DNA of 64,000 nt from Herbidospora yilanensis. Its GTDB lineage: Bacteria > Actinomycetota > Actinomycetes > Streptosporangiales > Streptosporangiaceae. Where the stretch lies: the NCBI RefSeq assembly GCF_001570565.1, contig NZ_BBXE01000013.1, positions 264,984 through 328,983 of the forward strand, in the 5' to 3' direction. This document shows positions 33,006 to 51,634 of this stretch, one piece after another. Positions within the stretch are counted from its first letter, which is position 1. Each line of letters opens with the position of its first letter. The notes beneath the pieces were generated by a model that was not told the origin of the DNA, ran no database searches, and saw nothing but the letters and a program-made list of their open reading frames with translations. Position numbers and translations under genes: made by a program.

Positions 33006-33007
33006 GA

Positions 33008-33517
33008 CTACAGGCCCCCTTCGTAAGGCATGACCCAGAAGAACTCGCCTTCCGCGTCATATTGGAAGATCAGCGCGGCCCCGCCCGCGCGGAAGACGTC
33101 GACGCCGGTCTGGCGCACCTGGATGACCGAGGTCGAGCCGTCGACGGCGCGGATCTCGGCCTGACCGAAGTCGGTGGAGACCGACTGGGTTCTGATGACG
33201 CAGATCTGCCCGACGAAGTCGTGCCGTGAGGGCACCTTCTCGGGCGCGGGCGTGAGGCGGCGTACCAGGAACGCGGCCCCGAGGCCCAGGACGAGCGCGG
33301 CGGCCAGGACCACCCAGCCGAGCGCCGGAAACAGCACGGATCCGGCCAGCGCGGCGAACCACCCCGTGGCCACGAACCCGGAGACCTCGGCCGCGGGCAG
33401 ACCGTCGAGGTCGACCACGCCGAAGGCCACGAGCAGCCAGAACCCGATGACGACGATCAGCGCGAAGCTGAACAGGACAGCCGGGAAGCCTAATGCGGCG
33501 TCCACGAAATCGCGCAA
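33008..33517 (-). CDS. NfeD/YqiJ-like membrane protein with a C-terminal OB-fold
   Basis: TTG start with AAAGGGGA upstream. It has 3-4 TM helices, then a soluble beta tail (GQICVIRTQSVSTDFGQAEIRAVDGSTSVIQVRQ...). Its stop lies 2 nt before the flotillin ATG. Confidence 0.75.
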   Translation of the reverse strand: MRDFVDAALGFPAVLFSFALIVVIGFWLLVAFGVVDLDGLPAAEVSGFVATGWFAALAGSVLFPALGWVVLAAALVLGLGAAFLVRRLTPAPEKVPSRHDFVGQICVIRTQSVSTDFGQAEIRAVDGSTSVIQVRQTGVDVFRAGGAALIFQYDAEGEFFWVMPYEGGL

Positions 33518-35789: not shown

Positions 35790-38102
35790 ATGTATGGGGG
35801 GAACCTCCCCCCAATACTGCTGGACGTGAGCGATTCGGCCGACCTTCCGCAGTTCCCCGGTGTCCTGGACACCGTGCGCGCCTGGCTCTCCTCCGCCGAT
35901 CCCCGGCCCCTCGTGCTGACCGGGCCGCCCGGCAGCGGCACCGCGGCGTTGCTGGCCCGGCTCGGCGAGCACCTCGCCGGAGAGCCGTCCGTCGTCGTCC
36001 GCGACGACCTCTGCGACGACCCCGCCCGGTTGCCGGCGCGGCCGGGTCTCCGCGTGATCACCCGGGCCCGCCGCCGGCACGACGGGCTGCTCTCCCTTCC
36101 GGTGCGGCCCCTGCGCGGCCACGGCCCCGACAGCGAGGTGGTCCGGTACTTCCTGCGGTGCCTGCGCCGCCACGACCCGACCGCCGTCGTCGCGGCCGAG
36201 GACCTGTCCCAGGTGAGCGAGGTCTGCGCGGCCTCGTTCGGGCTGTCCGCCGACGTCGACCTGCTGGCCGGGCTGGTCGCCCGCTACGGCCTGGCGGCCG
36301 TGCGCGACGCGGTCGCCGAGGACCACCAGCGCACCCGGCTGGCCGGGCTGCTCGGCGACGCCCACGGCCACCACGACCTGAGCGGCGACGAGATGGTCGT
36401 GCTGGCCTCGATCCTGGCGCTGCCGGGCGGGGCGAGCGAGAACGTGCTGCGCCACTCGTTGCCGCGGTGCGACATCGGCGGGCTGACCGCCTCCCTGGTC
36501 GAGCGCGGCCTGGTGGTGCGCGCCGAGCCCCGGCGCTGGCACCTGCGGGTGAGCGGCTTCCCGGCGGCGAGCTGGTGCGCCGCGCGGCCGGAGGTGTCGC
36601 TCGACGCGATCCGCCAGGCGCAGGCCGACTACCTGTCGGGCCAGGTCGCGCGGCTGGCCGCGGGTGTCTTCACCGACCACCAGCGGGCCGTGTTCGCCGA
36701 GTTCGACCACGAGCGGCGCAACCTCAACGCCGCCGTCGCCGAACTCGTCGGCGGCGGCCGGTACGCCCAGGCCGTCGCCCTCATGCGGGACGCCCTGCCG
36801 TTGCTGGCCCGCACCTCCGGCGTGGCCGGGCTGCTGCCGCACCTGCTGCCGGTCATCCGCAGGTACGCGCCCGCGACCCCGGCCGAACGGCACACGTTGT
36901 CGCGGCTGGCCGTGCGGGTGTTCGCGGCCGGAGGGGAACAGGAGGCCGCCGCCGTCTGCTTCGACGCGCTGCCGGAGACCGACCCGGACGTGCCGCTGCT
37001 GGCGGCCCTCGTGCACGCCGTGCCCGACCCGGAGGAGCTGGCCGCCTGCGTGCGGACCGCCCGCGAACAGGGCGACGCGGTCCGGCTGGGCGAGTCGGTC
37101 GGCGAGTACGTCGCCTGCCTGGCCCGGCTGCGCCGGTTCGACCGCGCCGACGCCGAATGCCGTACCGCCCTGTTCGAGGCGATGTGCGGCGGGGACGACC
37201 ACGCCGCGGCCTCGTTGCTGCTCTGGCGCGCGGCCGCCGCCACCGCCCTGGCCACCGGCGACAGCCGCCTGTACGTCGAACGGGCCCTCGCCAAGCTGCT
37301 GCCCCTCGGCCCGGCGGCGGCCATGTCGGCCATCGCCGCCGTGGTCGACGGACGCCACCAGCGCGACCTCCAGCAGAGCGCCGTCGACCTGGCGATGGTC
37401 GCCGGGTCGCTCGGCCGGGCCTGCGCGGCCGAGACGGAGCGTCCGGTCGAGGTCGGCGGGCTGCTGACCGGGCGCATCGGCGTCCGGCCGCTGCGCCGCT
37501 GGGTGACGGCGGGAGAGGGGGTCGACCTCGCCGACCTGCTGTGCGAGATCCTCCAGCGCAGGTTCGGCGACGACCCGGCCGCCCCCCGGCCGGTGCCGCA
37601 GGGCTCCGTCGACCCGAGGGTGCTGCGGGAACGGTCGCGGCTGACCGCCCGCGAGTCGGAGGTCGCCGGGCTGGTCGCGACCGGCCTGACGAACAAGCAG
37701 ATCGCCCGCCGGTTGCGCATCTCCGAGTGGACGGTGGTCAACCACCTGCGCCAGGTGATGCGCAAGCTCGACTGCGCCTCCCGGGTCCAGGTCGCCCGCT
37801 GGGTGCACGATCTGGAGGCCGGGTCAGCCCGTCTCGAACCGGCCGACGGCGACGGTGTGCAGCAGGGCCGGGTCGACCAGCGAGGCGAAGTCGGCCGTGA
37901 CGAGGTCGGCGTCCAGCGCGGCCAGCAGCCCGAGGTGCCGGTCGACGTACTCCGGGGGGTCGATGCCGCACGAGAGGAGTTCCGCGTACTGCTGGGTCAC
38001 GGCCAGGGTGGACTCGTACAGTTCGGGCGCGGCGGCGAGCATGCGGTCCCTGACCCGCGTGACCAGCCCCCCGTCGACGTCACCCTCGCGGAGCTGCGTT
38101 AA
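35790..38102 (+). CDS. Large LuxR-family regulator (LAL-like, degenerate P-loop) with a ~90 aa tail antisense to the next gene
   Basis: The N-terminus LVLTGPPGSGTAALLARL is Walker-A-like but lacks the Lys. A helical-repeat middle region follows. The C-terminal LuxR HTH reads LTARESEVAGLVATGLTNKQIARRLRISEWTVVNHLRQVMRKLDCASRVQVARWV. The frame stays open to 38102. Confidence 0.75.
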   Translation: MYGGNLPPILLDVSDSADLPQFPGVLDTVRAWLSSADPRPLVLTGPPGSGTAALLARLGEHLAGEPSVVVRDDLCDDPARLPARPGLRVITRARRRHDGLLSLPVRPLRGHGPDSEVVRYFLRCLRRHDPTAVVAAEDLSQVSEVCAASFGLSADVDLLAGLVARYGLAAVRDAVAEDHQRTRLAGLLGDAHGHHDLSGDEMVVLASILALPGGASENVLRHSLPRCDIGGLTASLVERGLVVRAEPRRWHLRVSGFPAASWCAARPEVSLDAIRQAQADYLSGQVARLAAGVFTDHQRAVFAEFDHERRNLNAAVAELVGGGRYAQAVALMRDALPLLARTSGVAGLLPHLLPVIRRYAPATPAERHTLSRLAVRVFAAGGEQEAAAVCFDALPETDPDVPLLAALVHAVPDPEELAACVRTAREQGDAVRLGESVGEYVACLARLRRFDRADAECRTALFEAMCGGDDHAAASLLLWRAAAATALATGDSRLYVERALAKLLPLGPAAAMSAIAAVVDGRHQRDLQQSAVDLAMVAGSLGRACAAETERPVEVGGLLTGRIGVRPLRRWVTAGEGVDLADLLCEILQRRFGDDPAAPRPVPQGSVDPRVLRERSRLTARESEVAGLVATGLTNKQIARRLRISEWTVVNHLRQVMRKLDCASRVQVARWVHDLEAGSARLEPADGDGVQQGRVDQRGEVGRDEVGVQRGQQPEVPVDVLRGVDAAREEFRVLLGHGQGGLVQFGRGGEHAVPDPRDQPPVDVTLAELR

Positions 38103-39089: not shown

Positions 39090-40258
39090 GAGGGTTCTCC
39101 GGCGGCGTGGAAGGCGACGACCGACGGCCGTGCCATCGGCCCGGCGGCCAGCGCGGCCACCTCGGCGTTGGTGACCCGGCGGACGGCGTCGAGCCGCGTG
39201 GTGACCCCGGCGGCGTCGCCCGACCAGGCGTGTTCCCGGCACAACTCCTCGGCGAGTGTGCGGGCGGCCCCGAGGGCCCCGAGTTGTTCCCTGATGCGCA
39301 GGGCCTTGGCGGCGGCCAGCACGTCGGGCGGCAGCCCGTCGCGGGCCACGGCGGCCAGACGGGCGGCGACGTCCCGTTCGAGCGCGGCCAGGTCGGCCGA
39401 GGCCGGGACCGACAGCTTGACCAGGCCGATCGACGGGCCGAGCGCGCACCGGGCGTGCTGGCCGAGCGCGCCGAGCAGGCCGGGCCGCGAGCCGAGCACC
39501 GACCAGGGGGCGCTGGCCAGCGCCGCCATCACCACCTCGGCGGCGGCCGATCCCGGCGGCAGGGCGAAGGTCAGCCGCACCATGGACGTCGGCTGGCCCT
39601 CCTCGACGTCCTCCCGCGCGCCCAGCGGCTCCCCGGTGACCGGCGGCGGGGCCGGCCGGCCCGAGGGAAACCCGGCCAGGTGGTTCCCGGCGATCTCCAC
39701 GGCCGCGTCGGGGTCGGCCGCGCCGACGACCGACACGACCAGCCGGTCGGCGCCGTAGTGGGCCTCCACGAACGTGGCCACGTCGTCGGGCGTCACGGCG
39801 GCGACCTCGGCGGGGTCGCCGACCGGCGGGCGGCCCGCCGGGTGGTCGCGCCCGAATAACAACCGCAGGCCGCGCCGCAGCCCCGACCCGAACCGGCCGG
39901 GTTCGTCGCGTTCGCGGATCTCCTCCAGCACGATCCGGCGGTGTCCCGCCAGCACGTCCCCGGTCACGCCGCGCCGGCCGCGCCGCACCCGGTCGCCGGC
40001 CTCGGCCAGCATCGCCGGGAGGGTGACCGCCGGGCCGGTCGCCACGTAGTTCGTGGACTCGTAGCCGGTGGTGGCCTGCGCCGAGCCGTTCTCGGACATG
40101 ACGTGCTCGACCACGTGAGCCAGGCCCGACCTGCCGATGGGGTCGTGCAGGGAGCCCGCGCCGTGCCAGGCGTTGACCGCGACGAAGCCGAGCCCCGGGT
40201 CGGGCCGCACGACCAGGGTCGCGCCGCCCGGCAGCCGGCGGGTGACCAGCCCGTCCAT
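39077..40258 (-). CDS. M16-family zinc metallopeptidase (pitrilysin/insulinase type)
   Basis: Internal start MDGLVTRRLPGGATLVV in track ORF 39077..40792-, with the inverted zinc motif GLAHVVEHVM (HxxEH). The start shares one base with the ABC gene stop (TGATG). Confidence 0.8.
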   Translation of the reverse strand: MDGLVTRRLPGGATLVVRPDPGLGFVAVNAWHGAGSLHDPIGRSGLAHVVEHVMSENGSAQATTGYESTNYVATGPAVTLPAMLAEAGDRVRRGRRGVTGDVLAGHRRIVLEEIRERDEPGRFGSGLRRGLRLLFGRDHPAGRPPVGDPAEVAAVTPDDVATFVEAHYGADRLVVSVVGAADPDAAVEIAGNHLAGFPSGRPAPPPVTGEPLGAREDVEEGQPTSMVRLTFALPPGSAAAEVVMAALASAPWSVLGSRPGLLGALGQHARCALGPSIGLVKLSVPASADLAALERDVAARLAAVARDGLPPDVLAAAKALRIREQLGALGAARTLAEELCREHAWSGDAAGVTTRLDAVRRVTNAEVAALAAGPMARPSVVAFHAAGEPSWIL

Positions 40259-41994
40259 CACGCGCCCACGGGGGCGGGGGCCGCCTGGGCGTGCACGAAC
40301 GCCTGGTAGGCGGGGCTGGCCGACGACAACGTGCCGTGGTCGCCCACGGCGGTGACGCGGCCGGCGTCGACGACCACGATCGTGCCGGCCGCGGCGACCG
40401 TCGACAGGCGGTGGGTGACCATCACCACGGCCCGGTCGCGGCCCAGGTCGGCGAGCAGGTCGGTGAGCCGCCGTTCGTTGACGCCGTCCATGTGCGCGGT
40501 CGGTTCGTCGAGCAGCAGGATCTCGGCGTCGGTCAGCAGGGCGCGGGCGATGGACAGGCGCTGCTCCTCGCCGCCGGACATCTGGTCGCCCGCGCCGAGC
40601 ACCGCGTCCAGCCCGGCGGGCAGGGCGCGCACGGCCTGCTCCAGGCCGACGTCGCGCAGCGCGGTCCACAACTCGTCGTCGGACGGGGCGTCCGACCGGC
40701 CCAGCGTCAGGTTCTCGCGCACGGTCATGGACAGGATCGCCGACCCCTGCTCGACCAGGGCGACCCGGCGGCGGGCCTCGGCTGTCGGCCACTCGTGGAG
40801 GGGCGCGCCGAGGAGCTCCACCCGCCCGGCGTCGGTCTCGACGAAGCCCTCCACCACGTTGAGCAGAGTCGACTTGCCCGCTCCCGACGGTCCGACGATC
40901 GCCAGCACCCCGGTGCGCGGCACCTCAAGAGACACCCCGTCGAGCACCGGCTTGCCGCCGAGCGACACCACGACGTCCGAGAGCCGCAGCGCCGGCGCGC
41001 CCGGCGTCACCTCGGGCGCGCGGGCCGCCCCGGCCGGTTCGGTCTCCGCGCCGAGCACCTCGTCGACCCGCCGCGCGGCGGCCTTGCCGACCGCGATCCT
41101 GCCCGCGCCCTGCGCCAGCGCCATCAGCGGGTTGACGAGCTGGAACAGGTACATCAGGAAGGCGATGAACGCCGTGGTCTCCAGCGCGCCCGAGGCCAGG
41201 CGCACCCCGCCCACGGCGAGCACGCCGATGATGGCGACCTGCTGGCCCAGGCCCATCAGCGGGCTGATCGCCGCCTGGGCCCGCGCCGAGCGCACCGCCG
41301 ACGCCGCCGCCTCGCCGATCTCGTTCTCCAGCGGGGCGATGGCCCGGTCCTCCGCCCGGTACGCCTTGACCGTCGTCACCATCGTGAACACCGACTGCGC
41401 GGCCTGGGCCAGCCGGCCGAGCGCGGCCTGCTGCGCCTCGGCCGCCCGGCGCATGCCCGCCAGGAAGGCCCTGATGGCGATCGCGGCCACGACGAACGTG
41501 CCGACCGTCACGGCCAGCATCACCCAGTCGAGGATGCCCATCACGATCAGGTACGCCGTCACCATCACCGCCGAGACCGGCATGACCGTGACGCCCGTGT
41601 CGGTGATCGCGCGCATCTGGGCGGCGTCGGGCCCCATCCGGGAGACCACCTCGCCCACGCCGATCCGCCGGATCACCGGCACCCGCAGGCGCACCGCCCG
41701 GCGCACCACGGCCAGGCGCACGTCCTCGATGGCCCGTTCCCCGGCCGCGCTCAGCAGGTAGGACGACCAGCCTCCGGCGAACGCCCCGGCCAGCACGATC
41801 ACGACGAGCTGCGCCACCGGCCAGACGACGTCCCCGCCCGTCCCGCCGATCACGCCCAGGATGCGGGCGATCAGCAGCGGCGTGACGATCCCGGCCGCGG
41901 CCGAGACCAGGGCGAGCACCACCGAGGCGGCCAGCCGGCCCCGCCGCGCCCTAACCGACCGGGACAACAACCCGAGTGTCGGCGACTCCGCCAT
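40258..41994 (-). CDS. ABC exporter, fused permease and ATPase (type I exporter)
   Basis: Six N-terminal TM helices. Walker A is GPSGAGKST, the signature is MSGGEEQRLSIARAL and Walker B is ILLLDEPTAHMD. Confidence 0.9.
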   Translation of the reverse strand: MAESPTLGLLSRSVRARRGRLAASVVLALVSAAAGIVTPLLIARILGVIGGTGGDVVWPVAQLVVIVLAGAFAGGWSSYLLSAAGERAIEDVRLAVVRRAVRLRVPVIRRIGVGEVVSRMGPDAAQMRAITDTGVTVMPVSAVMVTAYLIVMGILDWVMLAVTVGTFVVAAIAIRAFLAGMRRAAEAQQAALGRLAQAAQSVFTMVTTVKAYRAEDRAIAPLENEIGEAAASAVRSARAQAAISPLMGLGQQVAIIGVLAVGGVRLASGALETTAFIAFLMYLFQLVNPLMALAQGAGRIAVGKAAARRVDEVLGAETEPAGAARAPEVTPGAPALRLSDVVVSLGGKPVLDGVSLEVPRTGVLAIVGPSGAGKSTLLNVVEGFVETDAGRVELLGAPLHEWPTAEARRRVALVEQGSAILSMTVRENLTLGRSDAPSDDELWTALRDVGLEQAVRALPAGLDAVLGAGDQMSGGEEQRLSIARALLTDAEILLLDEPTAHMDGVNERRLTDLLADLGRDRAVVMVTHRLSTVAAAGTIVVVDAGRVTAVGDHGTLSSASPAYQAFVHAQAAPAPVGA

Positions 41995-42970
41995 CGGACC
42001 CTCCCCTCGCGCGCACGGCGGCGAAGATCTCGCGCAGGTCGCGCATGCACTCGTCCTGGCCGTACATGTTGTTGACCGAGCTGGGGTTGACGACCACCTC
42101 GTCCACCCCCAGGTCGTGGTACTTGGCGATCTCGTCGGCGATGTGGTCGGGGTCGCCGTAGACGTACACCCCGGCCTGGACGAGTTCCCTGGCGCCCGAC
42201 ACCGGGTCGGAGGCGTCCACGTCGAGGCCCGCCCTGCGCAGCATGTCGGTGTAGTGGGGGGCCGACAGGTGGCTGATGCTGCCGTACTGGGCCAGCAGGT
42301 TGGCCGACCGGCCGGGCCGGGCGACGGCCGCGTGCACGACCGACACGATGCGCGGCGGCGGCTGCACCCCGGCCGCGCCCTGCGCGACGGCCGGCATGAC
42401 GACGTCCTCGATGTACTTGAGCGGCGTCAGCCACGTCATCGCGAGGTCGCCGCAGCGGCCGGTGACCCGGGCCATGGCGGGCCGCAGCACCCCCGCGCCG
42501 ATCTCCACCGGCGGGCAGTCCATCGGCGGCAGCGCGGCGTCGACGGTGAAGTGCTCTCCCTTGTGCCGCACGTGCTCGTTGCGGGCCAGCCGGCGGGCGA
42601 CGTCGATGAACTCGCCGACGATCGCGGCCGGTCTGGCGTACGGCTCGCCGCGCAACTGCGTCACGTACTGCGGGTAGGCGGCGCCGTAGCCGATCGCCAC
42701 CGGTTGTCCCATGAGCCGGGCCAGCGACCGGGCCTGCAACGCCGCGTCGTACGGGTGGCGCAGCACGATCAGCCCGACGGCCATGCCGATCGAGATCCGG
42801 CAGCCCGTCCCGGCCAGGTAGGCGACCGCCGGGTGGGACTCGATCCGCAACGACTGCCCGAGCCACAACCGCGCCGCGCCGATCTCCTCGGTCAGCCGGC
42901 CGTACGGGACGATCGTGTCCGGGTCGGTCGGCTGGTGCGGGAACATGAACGACACCTTGCGCGAGCTCAC
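41951..42970 (-). CDS. LLM-class (luciferase-like) flavin/F420-dependent oxidoreductase, candidate LanJ-type dehydroamino-acid reductase
   Basis: The C-terminal ~339 aa of track ORF 41951..43954-. The GTG start overlaps the upstream stop (GTGA), giving VSSRKVSFMFPHQP... (first beta-strand of the LLM TIM barrel). It continues ...LWLGQSL...IGMAVGLIVLRHPYDAA...GDPDHIADEIAKYHDLGVDEVVV. Confidence 0.75.
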   Translation of the reverse strand: MSSRKVSFMFPHQPTDPDTIVPYGRLTEEIGAARLWLGQSLRIESHPAVAYLAGTGCRISIGMAVGLIVLRHPYDAALQARSLARLMGQPVAIGYGAAYPQYVTQLRGEPYARPAAIVGEFIDVARRLARNEHVRHKGEHFTVDAALPPMDCPPVEIGAGVLRPAMARVTGRCGDLAMTWLTPLKYIEDVVMPAVAQGAAGVQPPPRIVSVVHAAVARPGRSANLLAQYGSISHLSAPHYTDMLRRAGLDVDASDPVSGARELVQAGVYVYGDPDHIADEIAKYHDLGVDEVVVNPSSVNNMYGQDECMRDLREIFAAVRARGGSDGGVADTRVVVPVG

Positions 42971-43938
42971 GACGCCACCTCCACCAGCGGGCTGTCGGCG
43001 TTGCGGTGCGGCGCGAGCGGGTCGGCGTTCGCCTCGGCGAGCGCCTCGGCGACGGCCTCGGCCAGGTCGCGGCCGTCGAACAGGTGCCGCGCCACGCCGT
43101 CGGCGACCGCCATCGTGCGGTGCTGGCCCAGGCTCATGCGGTCCCATCCGGGCCGGGTGTCGCGCGGCTCCCAGCCGTACGCGACGCCGTCGGCGATCGG
43201 GCTGGTCATCACCGAGTGGGCCGGGTTCAGGCCGGGCAGGTTCCGCACCGCCGCGACGAGGCCGCCCACGGCGTGCCACGACTCCTCGGTCAGGTAGACG
43301 ACGATCGCGTCCCGCCTCGGATACTGGTCGGCCTTCGCCAGCACCTTCGCCCGGTAGGTCGCCCCGGCGCCCTCCAGCCGACTCAGCACCGCGTGCCACA
43401 CGGCGGGCGCCATCGACGGCTCGTCGACGTGCAGGTAGATCCGCAGCATGTGGCCGCCGGCCCCGTGGCCGCCCGCCGAGCCGTTGACCAGGAAGAACCC
43501 GGGAGAGAGCGTCGGCCTGATCGCGGGCAGCTCCAGCGTGGTGCGGGTGCCGATCTCCGGCAGCGGCGTCGGGCTCTCGCCCCCGGGGATGCGCAGGCGC
43601 ACCCGGCCGACGTCGAAGAGCACGTGCCGGCCGAGCGGGCCGTCGATCATGGCCGACCGAACGACCGCCGGGGTGCGGCTGGTGCGGTGGGGGGTGGCCT
43701 CCCGCAGGAGGTCCTCGAAGTCGTAGTCGCGGCGCGGGTCCCACTCGCCGGTCCTGACGGCCGAGCCGCTGTGCCAGTGGCGGTAGAGCACCGGCCCGAG
43801 GTCCTGGCGCAACCGGGTGCGGTTGTCGCCCGTGACCGTCTCGTCCCCGACGGTCACCGACCGGGTGTCGGGGTCGAGGCGCAGGTCGCCGAGCAGGTGG
43901 TCGAGCCGGTCGAGGAGACCCTGGTGGGCGATGGTCAT
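42967..43938 (-). CDS. HopA1-effector-family protein, candidate phospho-Ser/Thr lyase (LxmY/TvaD-like)
   Basis: Internal start MTIAHQGLLDRLDHLL in track ORF 42967..44727-, 323 aa. It sits between an APH-type kinase and an LLM reductase, as in class V lanthipeptide and thioamitide clusters. Motifs such as MLRIYLHV, YRAKV and PRRDAIVVYL match my memory of the HopA1 family, but this was not verified by search. Confidence 0.6.
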   Translation of the reverse strand: MTIAHQGLLDRLDHLLGDLRLDPDTRSVTVGDETVTGDNRTRLRQDLGPVLYRHWHSGSAVRTGEWDPRRDYDFEDLLREATPHRTSRTPAVVRSAMIDGPLGRHVLFDVGRVRLRIPGGESPTPLPEIGTRTTLELPAIRPTLSPGFFLVNGSAGGHGAGGHMLRIYLHVDEPSMAPAVWHAVLSRLEGAGATYRAKVLAKADQYPRRDAIVVYLTEESWHAVGGLVAAVRNLPGLNPAHSVMTSPIADGVAYGWEPRDTRPGWDRMSLGQHRTMAVADGVARHLFDGRDLAEAVAEALAEANADPLAPHRNADSPLVEVAS

Positions 43939-43940
43939 GA

Positions 43941-45047
43941 TCAGTTCTCTCCAAGGCCGATGGTGGGGGCGAACTTCTCCGGCGTCGTGAGCGCGTTGCG
44001 GCCGATCCCGGCCATGCCGCGCTCCACCGCGCTGAGCCGCGCGCCGTGCACGGCGCCCGCGAGCAGCCGGTCGAAGAAGTGCCACCCGATGTAGCCGGTG
44101 GCCCGCACGGCCAGGCCCTCGTCCGGCTCGGCGACCTCCCGGTAGCCCTGCCAGAAGCGGCGGATGTGCTCGCGCACGGCCGACAGGTGCCGGTCGCCCG
44201 CGGCGACGATCGCCTCGTGGGCGGCGCCCGGCGACAGGCCCGTGTCCAGGTCGAGCTCGCGGAACATGCGCGCCACCGCGTGGTGCACGAACTCGCCCGC
44301 GAAGGCCCCGACGTCCCGGGCCGGGTCGTGGTGCCGGAACTCCTCCCAGTCGATGACGTACAGGTCGTCGCCGGAGCACAGGAACTGGTCCAGGCGCAGG
44401 TCGCCGTGGGTGACGGTGGCGGGGGCGGCGGCCGAGACCCGGTGCAGCGCGGCGAGCGCCTCGACCAGCACCTTGTCGTGCTGGAGCAGCGCCCACGCCT
44501 CGACCTCGCCGCCGCTGCAGTTGGCGTAGTCCTCGGGGCTCAGCGCGTAGAAGGCGTTGGCCCGGCGGTCGTCGGCCGACTCGGGCAGGTCCTCGGCGCG
44601 CGGCAGCGAGTGCACCTCGCCCAGCACCCGGCCCATCCGGTGGGCCAGCTCGACGTCGAGCTCCCCGGCCGCCAGCAGGTCGGAGGCGGCGCGGGAGTCC
44701 GGCACGTACTCGAAGACCAGCAGGCATTCGCCGGCGTCGGCGCCGTGGAAGGCCGGCACCCGCAGCTCGGCCGTCGCACGGCCGGCGATCAGCCGCTGGA
44801 AGGCCAGCACCCGGTCCATCCGGGCGGCGGCGTGCGCGCGGTCCCCCCGCAGGCGCTTGACGAACAGGTCGGGTCCCTCGGCGGTCGGCACCAGCCAGTT
44901 GTCGTTGCGGCCGAGGAAGCCGCGCATGCCCTCCACGATGGGCGTGGCCCCGCTGAGCGAGGCGACCGCCTGGACGAACTCCTCCGGGCGCGACACCGGC
45001 CGGGCCGCGACCAGCCGGGTCGTCTGTGTTTCCTCTTTCACGTCCAT
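43941..45047 (-). CDS. APH/choline-kinase-fold phosphotransferase, candidate RiPP Ser/Thr kinase (LxmK/TvaC-like)
   Basis: The catalytic loop is VTHGDLRLDQFL and the metal-binding segment is YVIDWEEF. The nucleotide-lobe segment reads DLFVKRL...LLVFEYVP. The start is taken at MDVKEETQ (M18 of track ORF 43941..45098-) and is uncertain. Confidence 0.75.
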   Translation of the reverse strand: MDVKEETQTTRLVAARPVSRPEEFVQAVASLSGATPIVEGMRGFLGRNDNWLVPTAEGPDLFVKRLRGDRAHAAARMDRVLAFQRLIAGRATAELRVPAFHGADAGECLLVFEYVPDSRAASDLLAAGELDVELAHRMGRVLGEVHSLPRAEDLPESADDRRANAFYALSPEDYANCSGGEVEAWALLQHDKVLVEALAALHRVSAAAPATVTHGDLRLDQFLCSGDDLYVIDWEEFRHHDPARDVGAFAGEFVHHAVARMFRELDLDTGLSPGAAHEAIVAAGDRHLSAVREHIRRFWQGYREVAEPDEGLAVRATGYIGWHFFDRLLAGAVHGARLSAVERGMAGIGRNALTTPEKFAPTIGLGEN

Positions 45048-45246
45048 GCGCCGAAATCTATGGACGCGGAAAGGCCCCGCGACATCCCAGGAAAGCACCG
45101 GCAGCAGGCATATGGCAGATGCCTGACAGATCCTTGCCGGCCGGTGTTCCCGAATGGCAGTCGGCCGGTGACGCGGGCGCGCAAATCCTCGTCATTTCGC
45201 CAGGACCGGCGGCCTAGTTTCCTTTGTTCCGAAGGAAGGAGATCTC

Positions 45247-45387
45247 ATGTCCAGCGAACTCATCGCGGGATACGCGAACTACGCCAGCACCGAATCGGTC
45301 CTGAGCGAGAACACGACCGCCGAGTGGTGGCCGATCACGTCGTACACCGTCACGCTCTCCACGACGACCACCTCGATCTGGATCTGA
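45247..45387 (+). CDS. RiPP precursor peptide 1 (46 aa)
   Basis: Not in the track because it is under 60 aa. SD GGAAGGAGA lies 6 nt upstream. The sequence is MSSELIAGYANYASTESVLSENTTAEWWPITSYTVTLSTTTTSIWI. It shares its leader with four downstream paralogs. Confidence 0.8.
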   Translation: MSSELIAGYANYASTESVLSENTTAEWWPITSYTVTLSTTTTSIWI

Positions 45388-45397
45388 GGGGCGCGCC

Positions 45398-45538
45398 GTG
45401 TCCGAGCTGATCGCGGGTTACGCCAATTACGCCAGCACCGAGGCGGTGCTCCAGGAACGTTCCGAGGCCGGCCGCTGGATCGAGTGGACCCTCTGGTTCA
45501 CCGTCACCATCTCCGTCACCCCCACCTCCTCCCTCTGA
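45398..45538 (+). CDS. RiPP precursor peptide 2 (46 aa, GTG start)
   Basis: (M)SELIAGYANYASTEAVLQERSEAGRWIEWTLWFTVTISVTPTSSL. GAGGGG lies upstream, and the ORF starts 10 nt after the peptide 1 stop. Confidence 0.75.
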   Translation: MSELIAGYANYASTEAVLQERSEAGRWIEWTLWFTVTISVTPTSSL

Positions 45539-45559
45539 ACCTGCTGAGAAAGGAAGACC

Positions 45560-45709
45560 ATGTCCGAGCTGATCGCCGGTTACGCCAACTACGCCTCCAC
45601 CGAGGCCATCCTCCAGGAGCGGCAGCTCGCCGCCCGTGAGCCCGAGACCGGCCTGTTCACGCTCACCATCACGATCTCGCTGACCATCACGGTCACGATC
45701 AGCCTCTGA
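45560..45709 (+). CDS. RiPP precursor peptide 3 (49 aa)
   Basis: MSELIAGYANYASTEAILQERQLAAREPETGLFTLTITISLTITVTISL. The SD is GAAAGGAAG. Confidence 0.8.
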   Translation: MSELIAGYANYASTEAILQERQLAAREPETGLFTLTITISLTITVTISL

Positions 45710-45722
45710 CCAGGAGGTCCCG

Positions 45723-45872
45723 ATGCACGAGCTCGTCGCCGGATACGCGAACTATGCCTCGGCCGAGGCGATCCTGCGGGAACAGGCCGCCGGGCGTGTT
45801 CTCGAAGCGGGTCTCTTCTTCTCGGTGACCTTCAGCTTCACCCACAGCAATTCCATCTCCTTCTCCATCTGA
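45723..45872 (+). CDS. RiPP precursor peptide 4 (49 aa)
   Basis: MHELVAGYANYASAEAILREQAAGRVLEAGLFFSVTFSFTHSNSISFSI. The SD is AGGAGG. Confidence 0.8.
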   Translation: MHELVAGYANYASAEAILREQAAGRVLEAGLFFSVTFSFTHSNSISFSI

Positions 45873-45890
45873 CCGAAAGGAAACGGGCGA

Positions 45891-46046
45891 ATGAACGACC
45901 TCATCGCCGGATACGCCAACTACGCCTCCACCGAGGCCATCCTGCACGAGCGGCAGATCGCGAGCCGCGACGCCGAATCGATCAGCGCGACCGTGACGGT
46001 CACCTGGACCCTCACCGTCTCCTGGTCCTACTCCTGGTCCTACTAG
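45891..46046 (+). CDS. RiPP precursor peptide 5 (51 aa)
   Basis: MNDLIAGYANYASTEAILHERQIASRDAESISATVTVTWTLTVSWSYSWSY. The SD is GAAAGGAAA. Its TAG stop shares the CTAG palindrome with the convergent LuxR gene stop. Confidence 0.8.
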   Translation: MNDLIAGYANYASTEAILHERQIASRDAESISATVTVTWTLTVSWSYSWSY

Positions 46047-48934
46047 GAATCGCGCAGCACCGCGGCGTGGTCCCCCAGCGCCCCCCGGTTGGAAAGCCCG
46101 GTCTTGGCCAGCAGGCTGGCCACGTGCTTCTCCACCGTCCGCGGTGAGATGAAAAGTCGTCGGCCGATCTCGACGTTGCCGAGCCGTTCGGCGAGCAACA
46201 TCAGAACCTGGTGCTCGCGCACGGTCACGCCGAGGTTGCGCAGTTCGCCGGGCACCCCCTCCCGCCCGGGCCGACGGTACGACACCGCCGCCCCCGCCTG
46301 GCGCAGCAACGTGCGGCAGGCCGCCGTCACCGCCGTCACGCCCGCCTCGTGGAAGTGGTCCTCGGCCGCCCGCAACCACACCACCGGCTCGCCCCATCCG
46401 TCGGCCAGCGCGGCCTCCGCGACCAGCCGCGCCCCCAGGTGCGCCGCCTGCGGGAACGGCTCCCCGGCCGCCCGCGCCTCCGCCATCGTCCGCCCGGCCG
46501 CCGCGTGCTCGCCCCGCCCGCCCAGCAACACCGCGCGGGCGAGCAGCAGGAAGTGCCGGTTCCACCGCAGTTCGGCGGCCGGCTGGGCGTGCACGGCCGC
46601 CCAGTCGTCGAGGGTGAGCTCGCCGGCGAGCGCGCCCAGCAGCACGGCCAGGCCGTAGCGGCCCGTCATGTAGTAGAGCGTGGGATGTTCGTCCTCCCAC
46701 GCGCGTGCCCTGGCGAGCAACTCCGCCGCCTGGTCGCGGTCCTCCTCCAGCAGGGCGCAGAACGCCTGGCAGAGGCCGTACACGACCGGGGTGTGCAGGC
46801 TCTGCTCACCGCCCCACCTGCGGAAATCGGCCAGGGCGTGCTCCATGGCCTCGCGCCGCCCCTGGTGGGCGGCCAGTGTCGCCTGCGCCATCAGCAGATA
46901 CTGGGTGTAGGCCGTGTGCCCCAGCCGGATCGTGGTCTCGACGCACGCGGCGGCGGTCTCGGCGGCGCTCTTGTACTCCGCCCGCAGCACCCGCGTCATC
47001 ACCAGGGACGCCTCCGCGCTGTGCACCAGGCTGATCGCGCCCGCCTGGGTGGCCGCCCGCAGCACCTCCTCAAGCGGATCGCTCTCCCCGGTACGCATGT
47101 TGTGGTTGGCCGCCAGCCGGTACATCGCCCGCAACCGCCACAGGCTCAGCCCGTGCACCTCGGCGATGGCCTTCATCCGGGTCAGGCACCGGTCGGGCTC
47201 GCCGAACCCGTGCACCCTGGTCAGCATGGCCAGCCGCTCCCACGCCTGGCAGGCCACCTCGGGCAGCGGCAGCCGCTCGGCCACCTCGGCGGCGCGTCGC
47301 GACAGCGCCTCGGCGGCGGCCATCTCGGCCGGCCCGGCTTCGTTGACGCCGTGGTCGGGGAACAACAACTGCGCCTCGATCACGTCGATCGCGGCGCCGC
47401 GCGCCTCGTCGGGCAGGCTCTCCAGCGACCGCCGCACGGCCGCCACGTGGGCGCGCCCGGCGGGCAACTCGCCGATCTCGGCGGCCACCCACGCCAGCTT
47501 GGTGCGCAGGTCGACCTCCTGCCACAGCCCCATCGACAGGTCGTCGGACGCGCACTCCCTGGCCAGCTCCAGCGCCCGGTCGGCCCGGCCGCCCTCGGTC
47601 AGCGCGTGCAGCAACCGCTGGAGCGTGTGGGCCCGCGCCGGGGCGGGGCCGCCCTCCTGGAGCCGGTCGGCCCGTTCGAGCAGGGTCGCCGCGACGTCGG
47701 CGGCGCCGCCGTTCAGGTAACGTTCGCCCGCCTCGGCCAGCAACGCCCCGGCCGTGTGGACCTCACCGGCCGTCAGCCGCAGGCTCGCGGCGATCTGGAG
47801 CCACTCGTCCGGGAGCCCCGGATACAGGCGTTCGACCGACCGGGCCGCCTGGCGGGCCAGCCGGGCCCGCTCCGCCGGGATCAGCTCCGCCGACAACGCC
47901 TCGGCGGTCAGGGCGTGGCGGAAGGCGTACCATTCCCCGGCCGGTTCGTCGGGCACGACGAGCCGCGCCGTGGTGGCCGCCCGCAGGATCGCCTCGACCC
48001 CCCGGTCGTCGAGGCCGGAGACGTCCTGGATGACCGGCACCGGGAAGCGGTTCCCGAACACCGCCCCGGTCAGCAGCAGCTCGTGCGCCGCCGGCACGAG
48101 CGTCGCCATGCGCGCCGCGATCCCGCGCGCCGCCGAGTTCGGCCCCCGCGCGCCCGGGTCGTCTTTCAGGGCGTCGACGAACTCCTCGACCAAATACGGC
48201 ACGCCGTCCGTCTCGGCCACGAGGCGGTCCATCACTCCGTCCGGCAGCACGTCCGGCAACTCGTCCGGCCGTGCCAGGCAGGCCGCGACGAGCCGGCGGG
48301 TCTCGTCGGGCGACAGCGGCGGCAACTCGACGACCTCCGCCACCTGGCGGCGGGCGCAGTCGTCGGCCACGGTCCGCGCCGGGCCGGCGTGCCCGCGCAG
48401 GTTCACCAGGAGCAACGCCGGCACGTCGGCGAGGTTGTCGGCCAGGTATTCGACCACGCCCAGCGTGCCCGCGTCGGCGTCGTGCAGGTCCTCCAGCACC
48501 AGCACGCCGCCGCGCGACTCCCGTCCGAGAACGGTCAGGAGCCGCAACACGGCCTCGGCGAGGATGACCGCCGACTCCAGCCGCCGCGCGCCCCCCTCCT
48601 CCCGCCACTCGGGCACCAGCGTCGTCAACGCAGGGAGATAGGGCCGCAACAGCGGATCGTCGGGCGGCCTGCGCGACCGGGCGAGCGAGAACAACGCCTC
48701 GCTCAGCGGCTTGAACGGGATGTCCGCGCTGACCGCGCTACCCCGCCCGCGCAGGCTCACCAGCCCCAGGTCACCGGCCCGCCGGAGCACCTCCGACGTC
48801 AACCGGGACTTCCCGATGCCGGGATCGCCGACCAGGAAGACGGTCTTCCCGCGACCGTCCCCGACCTGCTCCAGACACCTGTCGAACAGCGCTTTCTCGG
48901 GTTCCCGCCCGATCAGGACCGGCGACCTGGACAC
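46043..48934 (-). CDS. LAL-type LuxR-family regulator (AAA ATPase + TPR-like repeats + LuxR HTH)
   Basis: GTG start gives VSRSPVLIGREPEKALFDRCLEQVGDGRGKTVFLVGDPGIGKSRL (Walker A), and Walker B is VLVLEDLHDAD. The C-terminal HTH reads LTVREHQVLMLLAERLGNVEIGRRLFISPRTVEKHVASLLAKTGLSNR. Confidence 0.85.
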   Translation of the reverse strand: MSRSPVLIGREPEKALFDRCLEQVGDGRGKTVFLVGDPGIGKSRLTSEVLRRAGDLGLVSLRGRGSAVSADIPFKPLSEALFSLARSRRPPDDPLLRPYLPALTTLVPEWREEGGARRLESAVILAEAVLRLLTVLGRESRGGVLVLEDLHDADAGTLGVVEYLADNLADVPALLLVNLRGHAGPARTVADDCARRQVAEVVELPPLSPDETRRLVAACLARPDELPDVLPDGVMDRLVAETDGVPYLVEEFVDALKDDPGARGPNSAARGIAARMATLVPAAHELLLTGAVFGNRFPVPVIQDVSGLDDRGVEAILRAATTARLVVPDEPAGEWYAFRHALTAEALSAELIPAERARLARQAARSVERLYPGLPDEWLQIAASLRLTAGEVHTAGALLAEAGERYLNGGAADVAATLLERADRLQEGGPAPARAHTLQRLLHALTEGGRADRALELARECASDDLSMGLWQEVDLRTKLAWVAAEIGELPAGRAHVAAVRRSLESLPDEARGAAIDVIEAQLLFPDHGVNEAGPAEMAAAEALSRRAAEVAERLPLPEVACQAWERLAMLTRVHGFGEPDRCLTRMKAIAEVHGLSLWRLRAMYRLAANHNMRTGESDPLEEVLRAATQAGAISLVHSAEASLVMTRVLRAEYKSAAETAAACVETTIRLGHTAYTQYLLMAQATLAAHQGRREAMEHALADFRRWGGEQSLHTPVVYGLCQAFCALLEEDRDQAAELLARARAWEDEHPTLYYMTGRYGLAVLLGALAGELTLDDWAAVHAQPAAELRWNRHFLLLARAVLLGGRGEHAAAGRTMAEARAAGEPFPQAAHLGARLVAEAALADGWGEPVVWLRAAEDHFHEAGVTAVTAACRTLLRQAGAAVSYRRPGREGVPGELRNLGVTVREHQVLMLLAERLGNVEIGRRLFISPRTVEKHVASLLAKTGLSNRGALGDHAAVLRDS

Positions 48935-48935
48935 G

Positions 48936-49136
48936 TTACTTGTGCGACACCGAGACGGGGTTGACGGGGTCGCCCTCAAGTCCGAGCGCGATGGTCGCGC
49001 CCGCGGCGGTGTCGGGCGACTTAAGGATCAGGGTCGCGCCCGCGGTCAGCCCCGCCAGCACGAGCGCCCGGGTGAGCGGCCTGATGTTGGCCAGCCGCGC
49101 GCCGGCCGCGAGCACCGGATTCTGCTCAGTGTTCAT
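48936..49136 (-). CDS. Small hypothetical protein (66 aa) translationally coupled to the LanM-like gene
   Basis: MNTEQNPVLAAGARLANIRPLTRALVLAGLTAGATLILKSPDTAAGATIALGLEGDPVNPVSVSHK. The ATG overlaps the LanM-like stop (ATGA) and GC3 is high. It has one hydrophobic segment and no Cys. Confidence 0.55.
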   Translation of the reverse strand: MNTEQNPVLAAGARLANIRPLTRALVLAGLTAGATLILKSPDTAAGATIALGLEGDPVNPVSVSHK

Positions 49137-51634
49137 CTGTTCTTCGTCGCCTCTCGAAAGGGGTGCAGCAACAGCACCGATGGAATCTGTCCGGGCGCGG
49201 CCAGCCGCAGCAGACCGTGCCCGATCCCGGCCAGCCCGAGGAGCAGGCCGGGTGTGGAGACGTGGCCGGGAGTGGCGCATCGTGCTCCGTGGCGGCGCAG
49301 GGACGCGAGCACCGAAGGGCCCTCACGTTCCTGGAGTTCGGGCACTCCGAGCCTGCCCACACGTCCGTGGCACAGGCTGTCGTCGGGCAGGAGCACGCTG
49401 GGCGGGGCCGTCCGGCGGGTCAGCAGCCCGCCGCACCAGGTGTGGCCCTCGACCGGGCCGATCGGGACGTCGAGCCCGTACCGGCCGAGCGCCCAGGCGA
49501 TGCCGGCCCGTCCGAACGCGAAGCCGTCGGGCAGATCCGGCGGCAGGTCCCGGCCGGTCAGCAGGTCGGCGCAGGCCGCCGCGACCGTCTCCGCCCCGAT
49601 GGCGAGCATCGCCGCCAGGCACCCGGCCAGCCCGTCGTGCACGTCGAGGGCGCTGCGCTCGGAGATCGTCGCCTCGGCCAGCTCGACCGCCCGGCCGGAC
49701 CACGCGAGCACCTCCGCGTCGCCGAGCAGGTGCCCGATCTGGGCCAGGCCGTAGGCCATGCCGCCCAGCCCGCCGAACCCGCCGCACCCCACGATCTCGG
49801 CCAGCAGCGGTTCGGCGGCCAGGGCGTCCAGCAGCGCGGGCGACGGGGAGAGGGCCTGCCGCGCGGTCTCCAGGAAGTCGCCGCGCCCGGTGACCGTGCC
49901 GGCCTGGGCCAGGAACAGCGCCACGCCGAGATAGCCGGAGGCCAGACCGCCGCCCAGGGGCATGACGGCGAGGCCGCCCTCGTCGTCGGCCTCCAGCCCC
50001 AGCCAGTTGACGGCCGCGCCCCGGCGGTGCGCGCTCGCGAGCAGTTCATCGGCGATCTTGACGGCCGCCGCCAGATAATCTCCGGTCTCGGCTTCGGACG
50101 GCTGATCGGGGCGTGGCGGATCGCCATCGACCCCCTTCGGGTCATGGCTTGGGGCCCCCGCCCGCGTTGCCAGTGACGCGCGAATGATCCACTCCTGCTT
50201 GCCCCGGTCGGCAGGCCCCAGCCCCGTCAGCTTCTCGCCCACCGATTCACGGCCCGTGCGGGCCAACTTCCACGGCACCCCGATGCCGTCCCCAGCGTAG
50301 ATCGTAAGGGAATCCGGCGATGTCCAGAAATAGGGGACATCGCATGAATTTATGCCCTCTGCCTCGAACGGCGCCGCCGCCCGCTGGAGGGCATCGTGCC
50401 CCGACAGCTCCATGAGCAGGGAAAGTGCGCGCTTACCTGAGTCGTCAAGGGCGGATTCCCATAACAGCTCGGAATAGATTCGGGTGGGCCGCAGAAGCAG
50501 TCGCACCCGCATGGGCCCGAACCGGGGGAACAACAACCGGTCCAGGTCGTGCCGCCCCTCCGCGATGGCGTCATAGGCCGCGCGAAAGCCACCGACCAGG
50601 TCGTCCACGTACGCGGCGGGGTCGGCAGGCCGCCCGTCGAGCCGGGGACGATTGGCGGCCCCCGCGAACGGACGCGGCCCGCGCACCGGCCGCATCAGAT
50701 CGGTGTCGCGGTCCTCCCACACGATCCCCGAATAGGCGTGCACCCCTGGGTCGCCGCCCAGCGCCGAGACGTCCTGGACCGCCTGGTCGCCGATCAGCAA
50801 CCTGGGCAGAATCGCGGTCCGGTCGACCGAACGCACGAGCGCGTCGTGGGCCGGATCGGCCGCGTCCGCGCTCAGCACAGGGTGGAACAGCGTCTCGGCG
50901 TCGACGACGACGGGCTGGTCGCCGGCCGCGACGACGTTCTCGAAATGGAGGTCGATCGTGTCCAGCGCGTGCGCCAGCGCGAGCAGCGCCCCCATCCGGC
51001 GATGGAACCGCGCCACCTCCGCCGCGGACGCGCAGGGCCGCGCCTCGGCGAACTCGACCCAGCCGTGCTCCTCACGGGCGACGACCCGGAGCGTACGCAG
51101 CCCGAGGCCGGGCACCCGGCCGTTCAGCCAGCCGATCGCGGCGTTCAGGCACAGATGCGCCTCGACCGGTCGCGGCCGGTAGACGACCCGGGCCCCCGAG
51201 GCGAACCGCACCACCGAGACCGACCGGCCACCGGAATGCGGATCACCGGCGGCCGAGAACGCCACCGGCCCTCCCGCTTCTCCCGGCATCAGGCCGCGCA
51301 CGGCCCTCTCGTCCCGCCGGAACCGGTCCAGCAACTCCATCGCGTGGCGTAACGCCAGGTCGGCCAGGTCGGCCACGGCCGGGTCCGGCTCACGCGCGGC
51401 CCGCCGGGCGAAGCCGGCGTACCTCTCCTCCGGCGTCGCCCCCGGCAACTCGCCCCGATCTCCGGCCTCGGCCAGCCGTACGGCCAGCGCCGGCGCGGCC
51501 CGCTCCGACAACCGGCCCACGAGATCCGCCGCGAAGGCCTCGGCGAACGCGGCCGCTCCGGGATACGCGGCCACCAGCCGGTCGGCGGCACGGCGGGCGA
51601 CGGGTTCGACGACGGCGGAGAAAGGGTGCGTCAC
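49133..51634 (-). CDS. Short (833 aa) LanM-like class II lanthipeptide synthetase (DUF4135 dehydratase-like + LanC-like cyclase domain)
   Basis: GTG start. The kinase-like dehydratase core reads VVYRPRPVEAHL...DLHFENVVAAGDQPVVVDAETLF. The C-terminal LanC-like repeats are GLASGYLGVALFL, GGFGGLGGMAYGL, HDGLAGCLAAM and GFAFGRAGIAWAL. Putative Zn ligands are HTWCGG and SLCHGRVG, followed by GLLLGLAGIGHGLL. Confidence 0.8.
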   Translation of the reverse strand: MTHPFSAVVEPVARRAADRLVAAYPGAAAFAEAFAADLVGRLSERAAPALAVRLAEAGDRGELPGATPEERYAGFARRAAREPDPAVADLADLALRHAMELLDRFRRDERAVRGLMPGEAGGPVAFSAAGDPHSGGRSVSVVRFASGARVVYRPRPVEAHLCLNAAIGWLNGRVPGLGLRTLRVVAREEHGWVEFAEARPCASAAEVARFHRRMGALLALAHALDTIDLHFENVVAAGDQPVVVDAETLFHPVLSADAADPAHDALVRSVDRTAILPRLLIGDQAVQDVSALGGDPGVHAYSGIVWEDRDTDLMRPVRGPRPFAGAANRPRLDGRPADPAAYVDDLVGGFRAAYDAIAEGRHDLDRLLFPRFGPMRVRLLLRPTRIYSELLWESALDDSGKRALSLLMELSGHDALQRAAAPFEAEGINSCDVPYFWTSPDSLTIYAGDGIGVPWKLARTGRESVGEKLTGLGPADRGKQEWIIRASLATRAGAPSHDPKGVDGDPPRPDQPSEAETGDYLAAAVKIADELLASAHRRGAAVNWLGLEADDEGGLAVMPLGGGLASGYLGVALFLAQAGTVTGRGDFLETARQALSPSPALLDALAAEPLLAEIVGCGGFGGLGGMAYGLAQIGHLLGDAEVLAWSGRAVELAEATISERSALDVHDGLAGCLAAMLAIGAETVAAACADLLTGRDLPPDLPDGFAFGRAGIAWALGRYGLDVPIGPVEGHTWCGGLLTRRTAPPSVLLPDDSLCHGRVGRLGVPELQEREGPSVLASLRRHGARCATPGHVSTPGLLLGLAGIGHGLLRLAAPGQIPSVLLLHPFREATKNR

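Follow-up and report, generated by a model that had tools for sequence, protein, structure and literature searches.

The 64,000-nucleotide stretch of Herbidospora yilanensis DNA analyzed here (the window; contig NZ_BBXE01000013.1, positions 264,984 to 328,983 of the forward strand) carries a tandem array of five small plus-strand genes, A1 to A5, which we interpret as the precursors of a Cys-free branch of the class V lanthipeptide (lanthidin) pathway, whose products would be linear peptides of alternating D and L configuration, a reading to which we assign a probability of roughly 0.6. The components of this proposal differ in firmness. It is very probable that A1 to A5 are the precursors of the neighboring system made up of a kinase (K), a phospholyase (Y) and a luciferase-like oxidoreductase (J), and only slightly less so that their alternate Ser and Thr residues are dehydrated; towards the reduction of most dehydrated residues to D-residues we lean with some hesitation, and a beta-helix or channel activity, suggested by analogy, is tentative. 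The biosynthetic parts, namely K, Y, J and a pair of M16 peptidases, are known, but no known counterpart exists for the way the substrate is designed or for the class of product predicted.

Re-reading the window places the five open reading frames (ORFs) where an earlier note, made from the letters alone, had put them, with the same lengths and start codons. A1 lies at 45247-45387 (46 amino acids, written in two parts as MSSELIAGYANYASTESVLSENTTAE and WWPITSYTVTLSTTTTSIWI, with a partly broken register; WP_157555514), A2 at 45398-45538 (46 amino acids, GTG start, uncharged tail WTLWFTVTISVTPTSSL; WP_157555515), A3 at 45560-45709 (49 amino acids, tail TGLFTLTITISLTITVTISL; WP_157555516), A4 at 45723-45872 (49 amino acids, tail AGLFFSVTFSFTHSNSISFSI; WP_157555517) and A5 at 45891-46046 (51 amino acids, tail SISATVTVTWTLTVSWSYSWSY, with a Trp/Tyr-rich C-terminus; WP_156045245). 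A purine-rich, Shine-Dalgarno (SD)-like element is visible before each ORF, the spacers measure 10-21 nucleotides, the GC content at third codon positions (GC3) is 0.82-0.96 per ORF, and the array is flanked by a kinase gene that points away from it and a LuxR gene that points towards it, all in line with that note. Its description of the ORFs as untracked did not hold, since all five are exact RefSeq proteins of H. yilanensis, named "hypothetical protein". The shared N-terminal block that it had read, M-x-(E/D)-L-(I/V)-AGYANYAS(T/A)E, is indeed common to all five, and when AGYANYA is searched for as a degenerate DNA pattern, the window yields 5 matches, all in the array, with 0.00 expected from shuffles. 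No signal peptide is found in the precursor peptides. Both promoters presumably lie in the intergenic stretch (45099-45246, no strand) from which the kinase operon and the array diverge.

The most distinctive feature of the family is the design of the core. The tail was defined as the uncharged stretch after the last charged residue, with positions counted from the C-terminus; a set of 34 family peptides was scored first, for runs and Cys, and five were added later, giving the 39 used for positional frequencies. In these 39 peptides the median tail length is 21 amino acids, Ser or Thr occupies positions -2, -4 and so on to -16 in 95, 95, 90, 85, 82, 77, 82 and 77% of cases, compared with 0-19% at the odd positions between, and the last residue is never Ser or Thr. 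Perfect (S/T-x)n runs span 11-21 residues, with 15 in A3 and A4 and 21 in A5 (p<0.0005 versus shuffles for A3-A5); those of A1 and A2 are shorter, interrupted by Pro or TTTT. Ser and Thr make up 45% of the tail (Thr 25%, Ser 20%) and the remainder is nearly all V, I, L, W, Y, F and A. Trp and Tyr are concentrated in the last eight residues (18% versus 5%, Fisher p=3e-8, 39 peptides), and at the even positions Ser and Thr swap freely between orthologues. The earlier description of the C-terminus as hypervariable stands in that the cores differ between ORFs, and falls in that the Ser/Thr-hydrophobic periodicity is strict, anchored at the C-terminus and devoid of Cys, with individual core types conserved across genera; neither the alternation nor the lack of Cys had been noticed there.

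Cys is absent from A1-A5 and from 34 of the 34 family peptides scored, two Cys being found in Flexivirga, among the five added later. A lanthipeptide identity was considered for A1-A5 and excluded on this ground, since a thioether needs a core Cys; judged by their sequences, the peptides are by definition not lanthipeptides. The cores do show the periodicity expected for D/L-alternating channel peptides, which is a property of the sequence alone and not of configuration.

The leader is homologous to those of class V lanthipeptides. The published consensus of type-A class V leaders is L(-24)xAGY(-20)xxY(-17), where Tyr-17 is invariant in the type-A (actinobacterial) leaders and most members have Leu and Tyr in place of the Met-24 and Phe-20 of the cacaoidin precursor CaoA (PMC9486802). 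The Herbidospora leader block reads LxAGYxxYA, an exact match to this consensus. For CaoA the leader is MGEVVEMVAGFDTYADVEELNQIAVGEAPE, its relevant part being ...EMVAGFDTYADVEEL..., with a linker that ends in ...APE (cacaoidin paper), and in an hhalign comparison positions 4-20 of the family pair with CaoA residues 6-22 over 17 columns, with 41% identity and an E value of 1.9e-5. The class V leader motif to which the earlier note had likened the block is real. The linkers before the cores of A1-A5 end in ...AE, ...PD or ...PETG and resemble the ...APE of CaoA. It should be noted that the published survey of class V precursors took Cys-containing ORFs only (PMC9486802), a restriction that no Cys-free family could have passed.

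That these short frames are coding in the sense direction is established by their evolution. Comparison of the array with the orthologous one of H. solisilvae (locus L004) yields 30 synonymous and 16 non-synonymous differences, that is, a proportion of synonymous differences (pS) of 0.170 and of non-synonymous differences (pN) of 0.030, with a pN/pS of 0.18; the frames are retained in this close relative, as anticipated for genuine genes, and are under purifying selection. One core type, SSVSLSLSV(S/T)LSVTYSWSWTW, recurs in Embleya, Actinacidiphila, Streptomyces and one metagenome-assembled genome (MAG) with pS 0.26-0.63 and pN 0.02-0.05. The codon of Ser13 is AGC in A1 and A2 and TCC or TCG in A3-A5, a switch that only amino acid selection in the sense frame explains. 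Third-position composition was dropped as sole coding evidence: the antisense ORFs within each precursor gene (45279-46015, minus strand) have GC3 values of 0.89-0.97, one antisense frame being equally high, so that GC3 alone cannot tell which strand is the coding one when ORFs of this genome are short. What fixes the sense frame is pN/pS, Ser13 codon switching and cross-genus conservation. As a further observation, the H. solisilvae array (L004 7521-8490) has six genes versus five, with the A3-type and A4-type cores in swapped order and an extra core, PTIFSVTAPNSVTLSWTSTL; to judge from these sequences, the swap and the extra gene suggest recombination between the leader-coding repeats.

The Cys-free precursor family is rare. 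A word-indexed search of 5.8 billion proteins returned 14 relatives, a profile search of all 1.84 billion cluster representatives 24 at E<=0.001, and a screen of one genome per species (185,579 species) 9 loci. Hosts are Herbidospora, Streptosporangium, Sphaerimonospora, Rhizohabitans, Streptomyces, Embleya, Actinacidiphila, Flexivirga and uncultured Actinomycetota, with 1-6 tandem precursors per locus that share the leader and the alternating, Cys-free design. K, Y and J adjoin the precursors in every complete locus, including those of Embleya, Streptomyces, Sphaerimonospora, Rhizohabitans, Flexivirga and one MAG, which answers the question of whether leader homologues in other genomes are linked to kinase, HopA1 and luciferase-like monooxygenase (LLM) genes: in complete loci they always lie next to them. 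The proposal of that note that a conserved leader with a divergent core marks an array of precursors of peptides synthesized ribosomally and modified post-translationally (RiPPs) amid tailoring genes thus gains support from co-localization, retained frames and a leader of the class V type. In Streptomyces sp. HPF1205 only K, Y, J and a LuxR gene accompany the precursors, hence these four form the minimal set. J is the most conserved enzyme, with 71-80% identity across families versus 56-72% for K. Decay hits the cluster as a unit, as indicated by Actinacidiphila soli (L011 3553-6778), which retains one intact precursor beside truncated K and Y genes and has lost both J and the ABC transporter gene, and by the metagenomic precursor P0162, frameshifted after the leader.

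Identity of the LLM separates three tiers, at least 66% for the Cys-free family, 55-62% for a sister family and about 49% for canonical class V clusters, which carry a flavoprotein decarboxylase, an M16 pair, an aminoglycoside phosphotransferase (APH) protein and HopA1. The sister family is represented by Streptomyces sp. NBC_01190 (L013 2210-4611; LLM 55-57% identical), where the leader, MAADLMAGYVAYTNAPDIL, is divergent, both cores, SISVTVSVTYSWTATY and SISITVSVTVSLTATA, are alternating and lack Cys, and an extra 663-amino-acid radical S-adenosylmethionine (radical-SAM) enzyme is encoded next to the precursors. Relatives that bear Cys are rare, namely the Flexivirga peptide ending in ...TVTTICSCTL (L014 4572-4721) and the metagenomic P0163 and P0164, ending in ...SWSWSWSCGP and ...SWSWSWSCG. 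The metagenomic ends resemble the ...ASWGC end of cacaoidin, which forms S-aminovinyl-3-methylcysteine (AviMeCys), and from their sequences these relatives may be intermediates between lanthidins and the Cys-free family.

The enzymes form a tightly packed minus-strand operon, divergent from the array, whose domains were assigned through Pfam, NCBIfam and PDB profile matches. K (43941-45098, minus strand) is an LxmK-type kinase of the APH fold, scoring 363.9 bits against NCBIfam NF038156 LxmK (cut-off 315) and 1.1e-54 against PDB 9DK1_A, and its motifs HGDLRLDQF and DWE (HxDLRxDQF, DWEEFR) are conserved with LxmK. Y (42967-43938, minus strand) is an LxmY-type HopA1 phospholyase (Pfam HopA1 6.6e-41; PDB 9DK1_B 9.9e-41). 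Both match their chains, A and B of 9DK1, over near-full length, the entry being LxmKY, the dehydratase of lexapeptide. J (41951-42970, minus strand) is a luciferase-like, F420-type oxidoreductase (Pfam Bac_luciferase 1e-32), predicted to be LanJC/LxmJ-like. Its best NCBIfam match is TIGR03564 F420_MSMEG_4879 (1.1e-28), the top matches are all F420 LLM families, the best PDB relatives are F420-dependent Mer enzymes, and with the LLM from a canonical class V cluster it shares 49% identity. The MSMEG_4879 family is the one to which LxmJ and Cao12 have been assigned (cacaoidin paper). We thus take J for a putative reductase of dehydroalanine (Dha) and dehydrobutyrine (Dhb), giving D-Ala and D-aminobutyric acid (D-Abu).

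Further along the same strand follow an ABC exporter whose membrane and ATPase domains are fused (40258-41994), predicted to serve export and/or immunity, the M16 peptidase P1 (39077-40258), with the zinc motif HVVEH and hence probably the active leader peptidase, and the M16-like P2 (37824-39089), which has no HxxEH and would be its inactive partner; LxmP1/LxmP2 is likewise an inactive/active M16 pair (cacaoidin paper). Neither a LanD-type flavoprotein nor a second kinase-fold protein (the LanX cyclase) was found in the 64-kb window by tblastn with the flavoprotein and the 422-amino-acid protein of locus L015 and APH queries, nor by Pfam among the cluster genes, and the APH queries detect a single kinase in the window. 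A methyltransferase homologue and, by tblastn, a radical-SAM gene were likewise not found in the window.

From these parts the following pathway can be proposed. The LxAGYxxYA leader would dock the peptide on the heterodimeric dehydratase formed by K and Y, K would phosphorylate the alternate core Ser and Thr, and Y would eliminate the phosphate to leave Dha and Dhb. With neither Cys nor a cyclase or decarboxylase at hand, no thioether or S-aminovinyl-cysteine (AviCys) ring could form. J, like LxmJ, Cao12 and SprOR, would then hydrogenate Dha and Dhb to D-Ala and D-Abu, the M16 pair would cut the leader off at a predicted site where the acidic linker ends, and export of the product would fall to the ABC transporter. 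The result would be five distinct linear, almost all-hydrophobic 16-22-mers of alternating D and L configuration with a Trp/Tyr-rich C-terminus, which by analogy with gramicidin A would most plausibly enter membranes as beta-helices. The precedent for the reduction step is pristinin, where Ser and Thr become Ala and Abu, a conversion credited to the LLM SprOR; both cacaoidin and pristinin contain D-Abu or Abu derived from Thr.

Compared with known systems, the cluster stands closest to the class V lanthipeptides cacaoidin, lexapeptide and pristinin A3, with which it shares the LanK and LanY pair, the type-A leader, an F420-type LLM, the M16 pair, the ABC exporter and LuxR. As regards membership in class V, the pair and the leader are present, and a luciferase-like fold of the F420 subgroup lies beside them. 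Cacaoidin already has a brief stretch of alternation in its core, ASVSASISATAS, along with five D-residues, whereas the Herbidospora cores are Cys-free throughout and consist entirely of a (Ser/Thr-hydrophobic)n repeat, Cys occurring only in the rare relatives; with no Cys, LanX or LanD, neither lanthionine nor AviCys is possible in the Herbidospora products. The LanJ systems (lactocin S, lacticin 3147, carnolysin, bicereucin) follow the same logic, from L-Ser/Thr through Dha/Dhb to D-Ala/D-Abu, but they use LanM or LanB dehydratases and LanJA (zinc) or LanJB (flavin) reductases, belong to Firmicutes and contain few, irregularly spaced D-residues, usually with a Lan partner. Bicereucin alpha peptide is linear and rich in D-residues.

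Gramicidin A has 15 residues of alternating L and D configuration, with Trp at 9, 11, 13 and 15 and with N-formyl and C-terminal ethanolamine caps. The predicted products resemble it in length (16-22 residues), in being fully hydrophobic, in the predicted alternation of configuration and in the aromatics of the C-terminal half, but gramicidin A is made by a non-ribosomal peptide synthetase (NRPS) with epimerization domains and is capped, whereas here the D-residues would be only Ala and Abu; the likeness would be a functional analogy and not homology. A ribosomal peptide of alternating D and L configuration that forms a beta6.3-helical ion channel is polytheonamide B (PMC3887386). Polytheonamides and other proteusins differ by a radical-SAM epimerase, an NHLP-type leader, a length of 48 residues and an origin in uncultivated sponge symbionts. 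A proteusin reading of the array was rejected, with no radical-SAM gene and a leader of class V rather than NHLP type, as was a linaridin-type reading, with no LinL-type genes; dmxorosin, considered as a parallel, is a class I lanthipeptide and irrelevant.

Several points weigh against the proposed pathway. LxmJ reduced Dha, not Dhb, in an S28T variant (cacaoidin paper), and as Thr, the commonest residue of the cores, exceeds Ser, many positions could stay Dhb. Reduction of Dhb would be the weakest link, together with fold and activity, which are conjectural throughout. J falls below the cut-off of every NCBIfam F420 subfamily, so that we infer its cofactor and reaction. The register of A1, A2 and several relatives breaks at Pro, Asn or Gly, or in TTTT runs, a poor fit to a perfect beta-helix, and no N- or C-terminal capping enzyme is seen in the cluster. 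A sigma-70 consensus scan of the intergenic region gave no match, a scan that is uninformative for high-GC actinomycetes.

Among the rival explanations, the most serious, although we consider it unlikely, keeps the same precursors with K and Y and yields largely unreduced polydehydro peptides of alternating Dhb and Dha, where the LLM reduces few Dha or performs another redox step. A precedent for linear dehydroamino acid peptides from lanthipeptide machinery would be the myxopeptins, which come from a different phylum and are reportedly made by lanthipeptide-type dehydration with no ring formed, and in which we know of no alternating core. The limited range of LxmJ, set beside a Thr content of 25% of tail residues, speaks in the same direction, and the decRiPPter authors considered that K/Y clusters may leave dehydrated residues without thioether. 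Yet the LLM is found in every intact locus as the most conserved enzyme, Ser and Thr are freely exchanged at alternate positions between orthologues, and Thr-derived D-Abu or Abu does occur in cacaoidin and pristinin.

The other alternatives are considerably less probable. An improbable one concerns the adjacent LanM-like gene (49133-51634, minus strand; 833 amino acids, DUF4135 and LanC), which with a conserved 66-amino-acid Cys-free ORF (48936-49136, minus strand), translationally coupled to it through ATGA, and the LuxR-type regulator R2 could modify A1-A5 in Herbidospora, so that the local product would differ from that of other genera. In both Herbidospora and Sphaerimonospora this module has been kept immediately next to the array, and no credible Cys-bearing LanA for the LanM was identified beside the gene or among the intergenic high-GC3 small ORFs of the window; but the module is missing from the Embleya, Streptomyces, Rhizohabitans (flank available), Flexivirga and MAG loci, the LanC-type zinc motifs WCGG and CHG are intact and imply a Cys-bearing substrate, which A1-A5 are not, and the leaders are of class V and not class II type. 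That the peptides act unmodified, as secreted amphipathic beta-strands with surface-active or amyloid-like properties, the linkage to K, Y and J being incidental, is very improbable: alternation of polar and hydrophobic residues is the classic signature of such a strand, but every complete locus, from three orders, combines the precursors with the three enzymes, the leader shares homology with those of class V LanA peptides, there is no signal peptide, and where the locus has decayed, in Actinacidiphila, truncation or loss has struck the enzymes together. Least probable by far, to the point of being negligible, is an untranslated tandem DNA repeat or regulatory RNA region with chance open frames, for which the high GC3 of an antisense frame could be adduced, and which is contradicted by the pN/pS of 0.18, by codon-family switches that preserve Ser, by the SD-like sequence on every ORF, by a Ser/Thr register that the 39 peptides, drawn from many genera, keep exactly in step with the stop codon, and by the annotation of the ORFs by PGAP.

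If the Cys-free D/L-alternating pathway is correct, the class V toolkit of kinase, lyase and F420 reductase rewrites a whole ribosomal peptide into an alternating hydrophobic chain with no ring, with a reductase that accepts many consecutive Dhb and Dha sites. It would offer an encodable and mutable route to gramicidin-like membrane-active peptides with three enzymes, as in the minimal Streptomyces locus. By analogy, and speculatively, K/Y dehydration with F420H2-dependent hydrogenation could represent a third independent route to such peptides, after NRPS and radical-SAM epimerization, leading to a cocktail of five cation channel-forming peptides with a C-terminal Trp/Tyr interfacial anchor. 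It would also mean that a new RiPP family is excluded by current genome-mining filters, as with the Cys-containing ORFs to which the class V survey was confined. Were reduction incomplete, the products would still be unusual polydehydro peptides, and mass shifts and the D-Ala/D-Abu content are directly testable predictions. Calculated for loss of 18.011 Da per dehydration and gain of 2.016 Da per reduction, the predicted masses of the A3 tail are 2107.24, 1945.14 and 1963.29 Da (unmodified, dehydrated, reduced) and those of the A5 tail 2524.22, 2326.10 and 2348.27 Da, the exact N-terminus depending on where the leader is cut. That thioethers are not a necessary outcome of K/Y clusters had been foreseen, in a general way, by the decRiPPter authors, and full-text literature searches found no paper on the Cys-free precursor family, an absence that is not proof as most subscription-journal papers lie outside their reach.

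Concerning the remaining neighbors, R1 (35790-38102, plus strand) is a LuxR-family regulator of 770 amino acids with homologues at the Streptomyces, Embleya, Actinacidiphila and Flexivirga loci. R2 (46043-48979, minus strand), a LAL-type (large ATP-binding LuxR) regulator with AAA_16 and LuxR domains, converges on the array, its true start likely being a GTG at 48934; like the rest of the LanM, 66-amino-acid ORF and R2 module, it lies beside the array in Herbidospora and Sphaerimonospora only. Membership of the LanM-like gene and the 66-amino-acid ORF in the pathway is uncertain, both being missing from most family loci. The stop codons of A5 (plus strand) and R2 (minus strand) overlap in the palindrome CTAG at 46043-46046, no terminator-like hairpin lies between the two genes, and a terminator scan, uninformative for a high-GC actinomycete, found chance-level hairpins only.

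Beyond the regulators the genes are unrelated (peroxiredoxin, Hsp20, NAD kinase). A separate observation concerns the minus-strand region 26278-33517, which encodes a 1573-amino-acid protein with DUF3686 ("ATPase involved in DNA repair"), DUF7902 and AAA domains, then proteins of 669 and 169 amino acids with no Pfam match, and which may be a defense or repair island.

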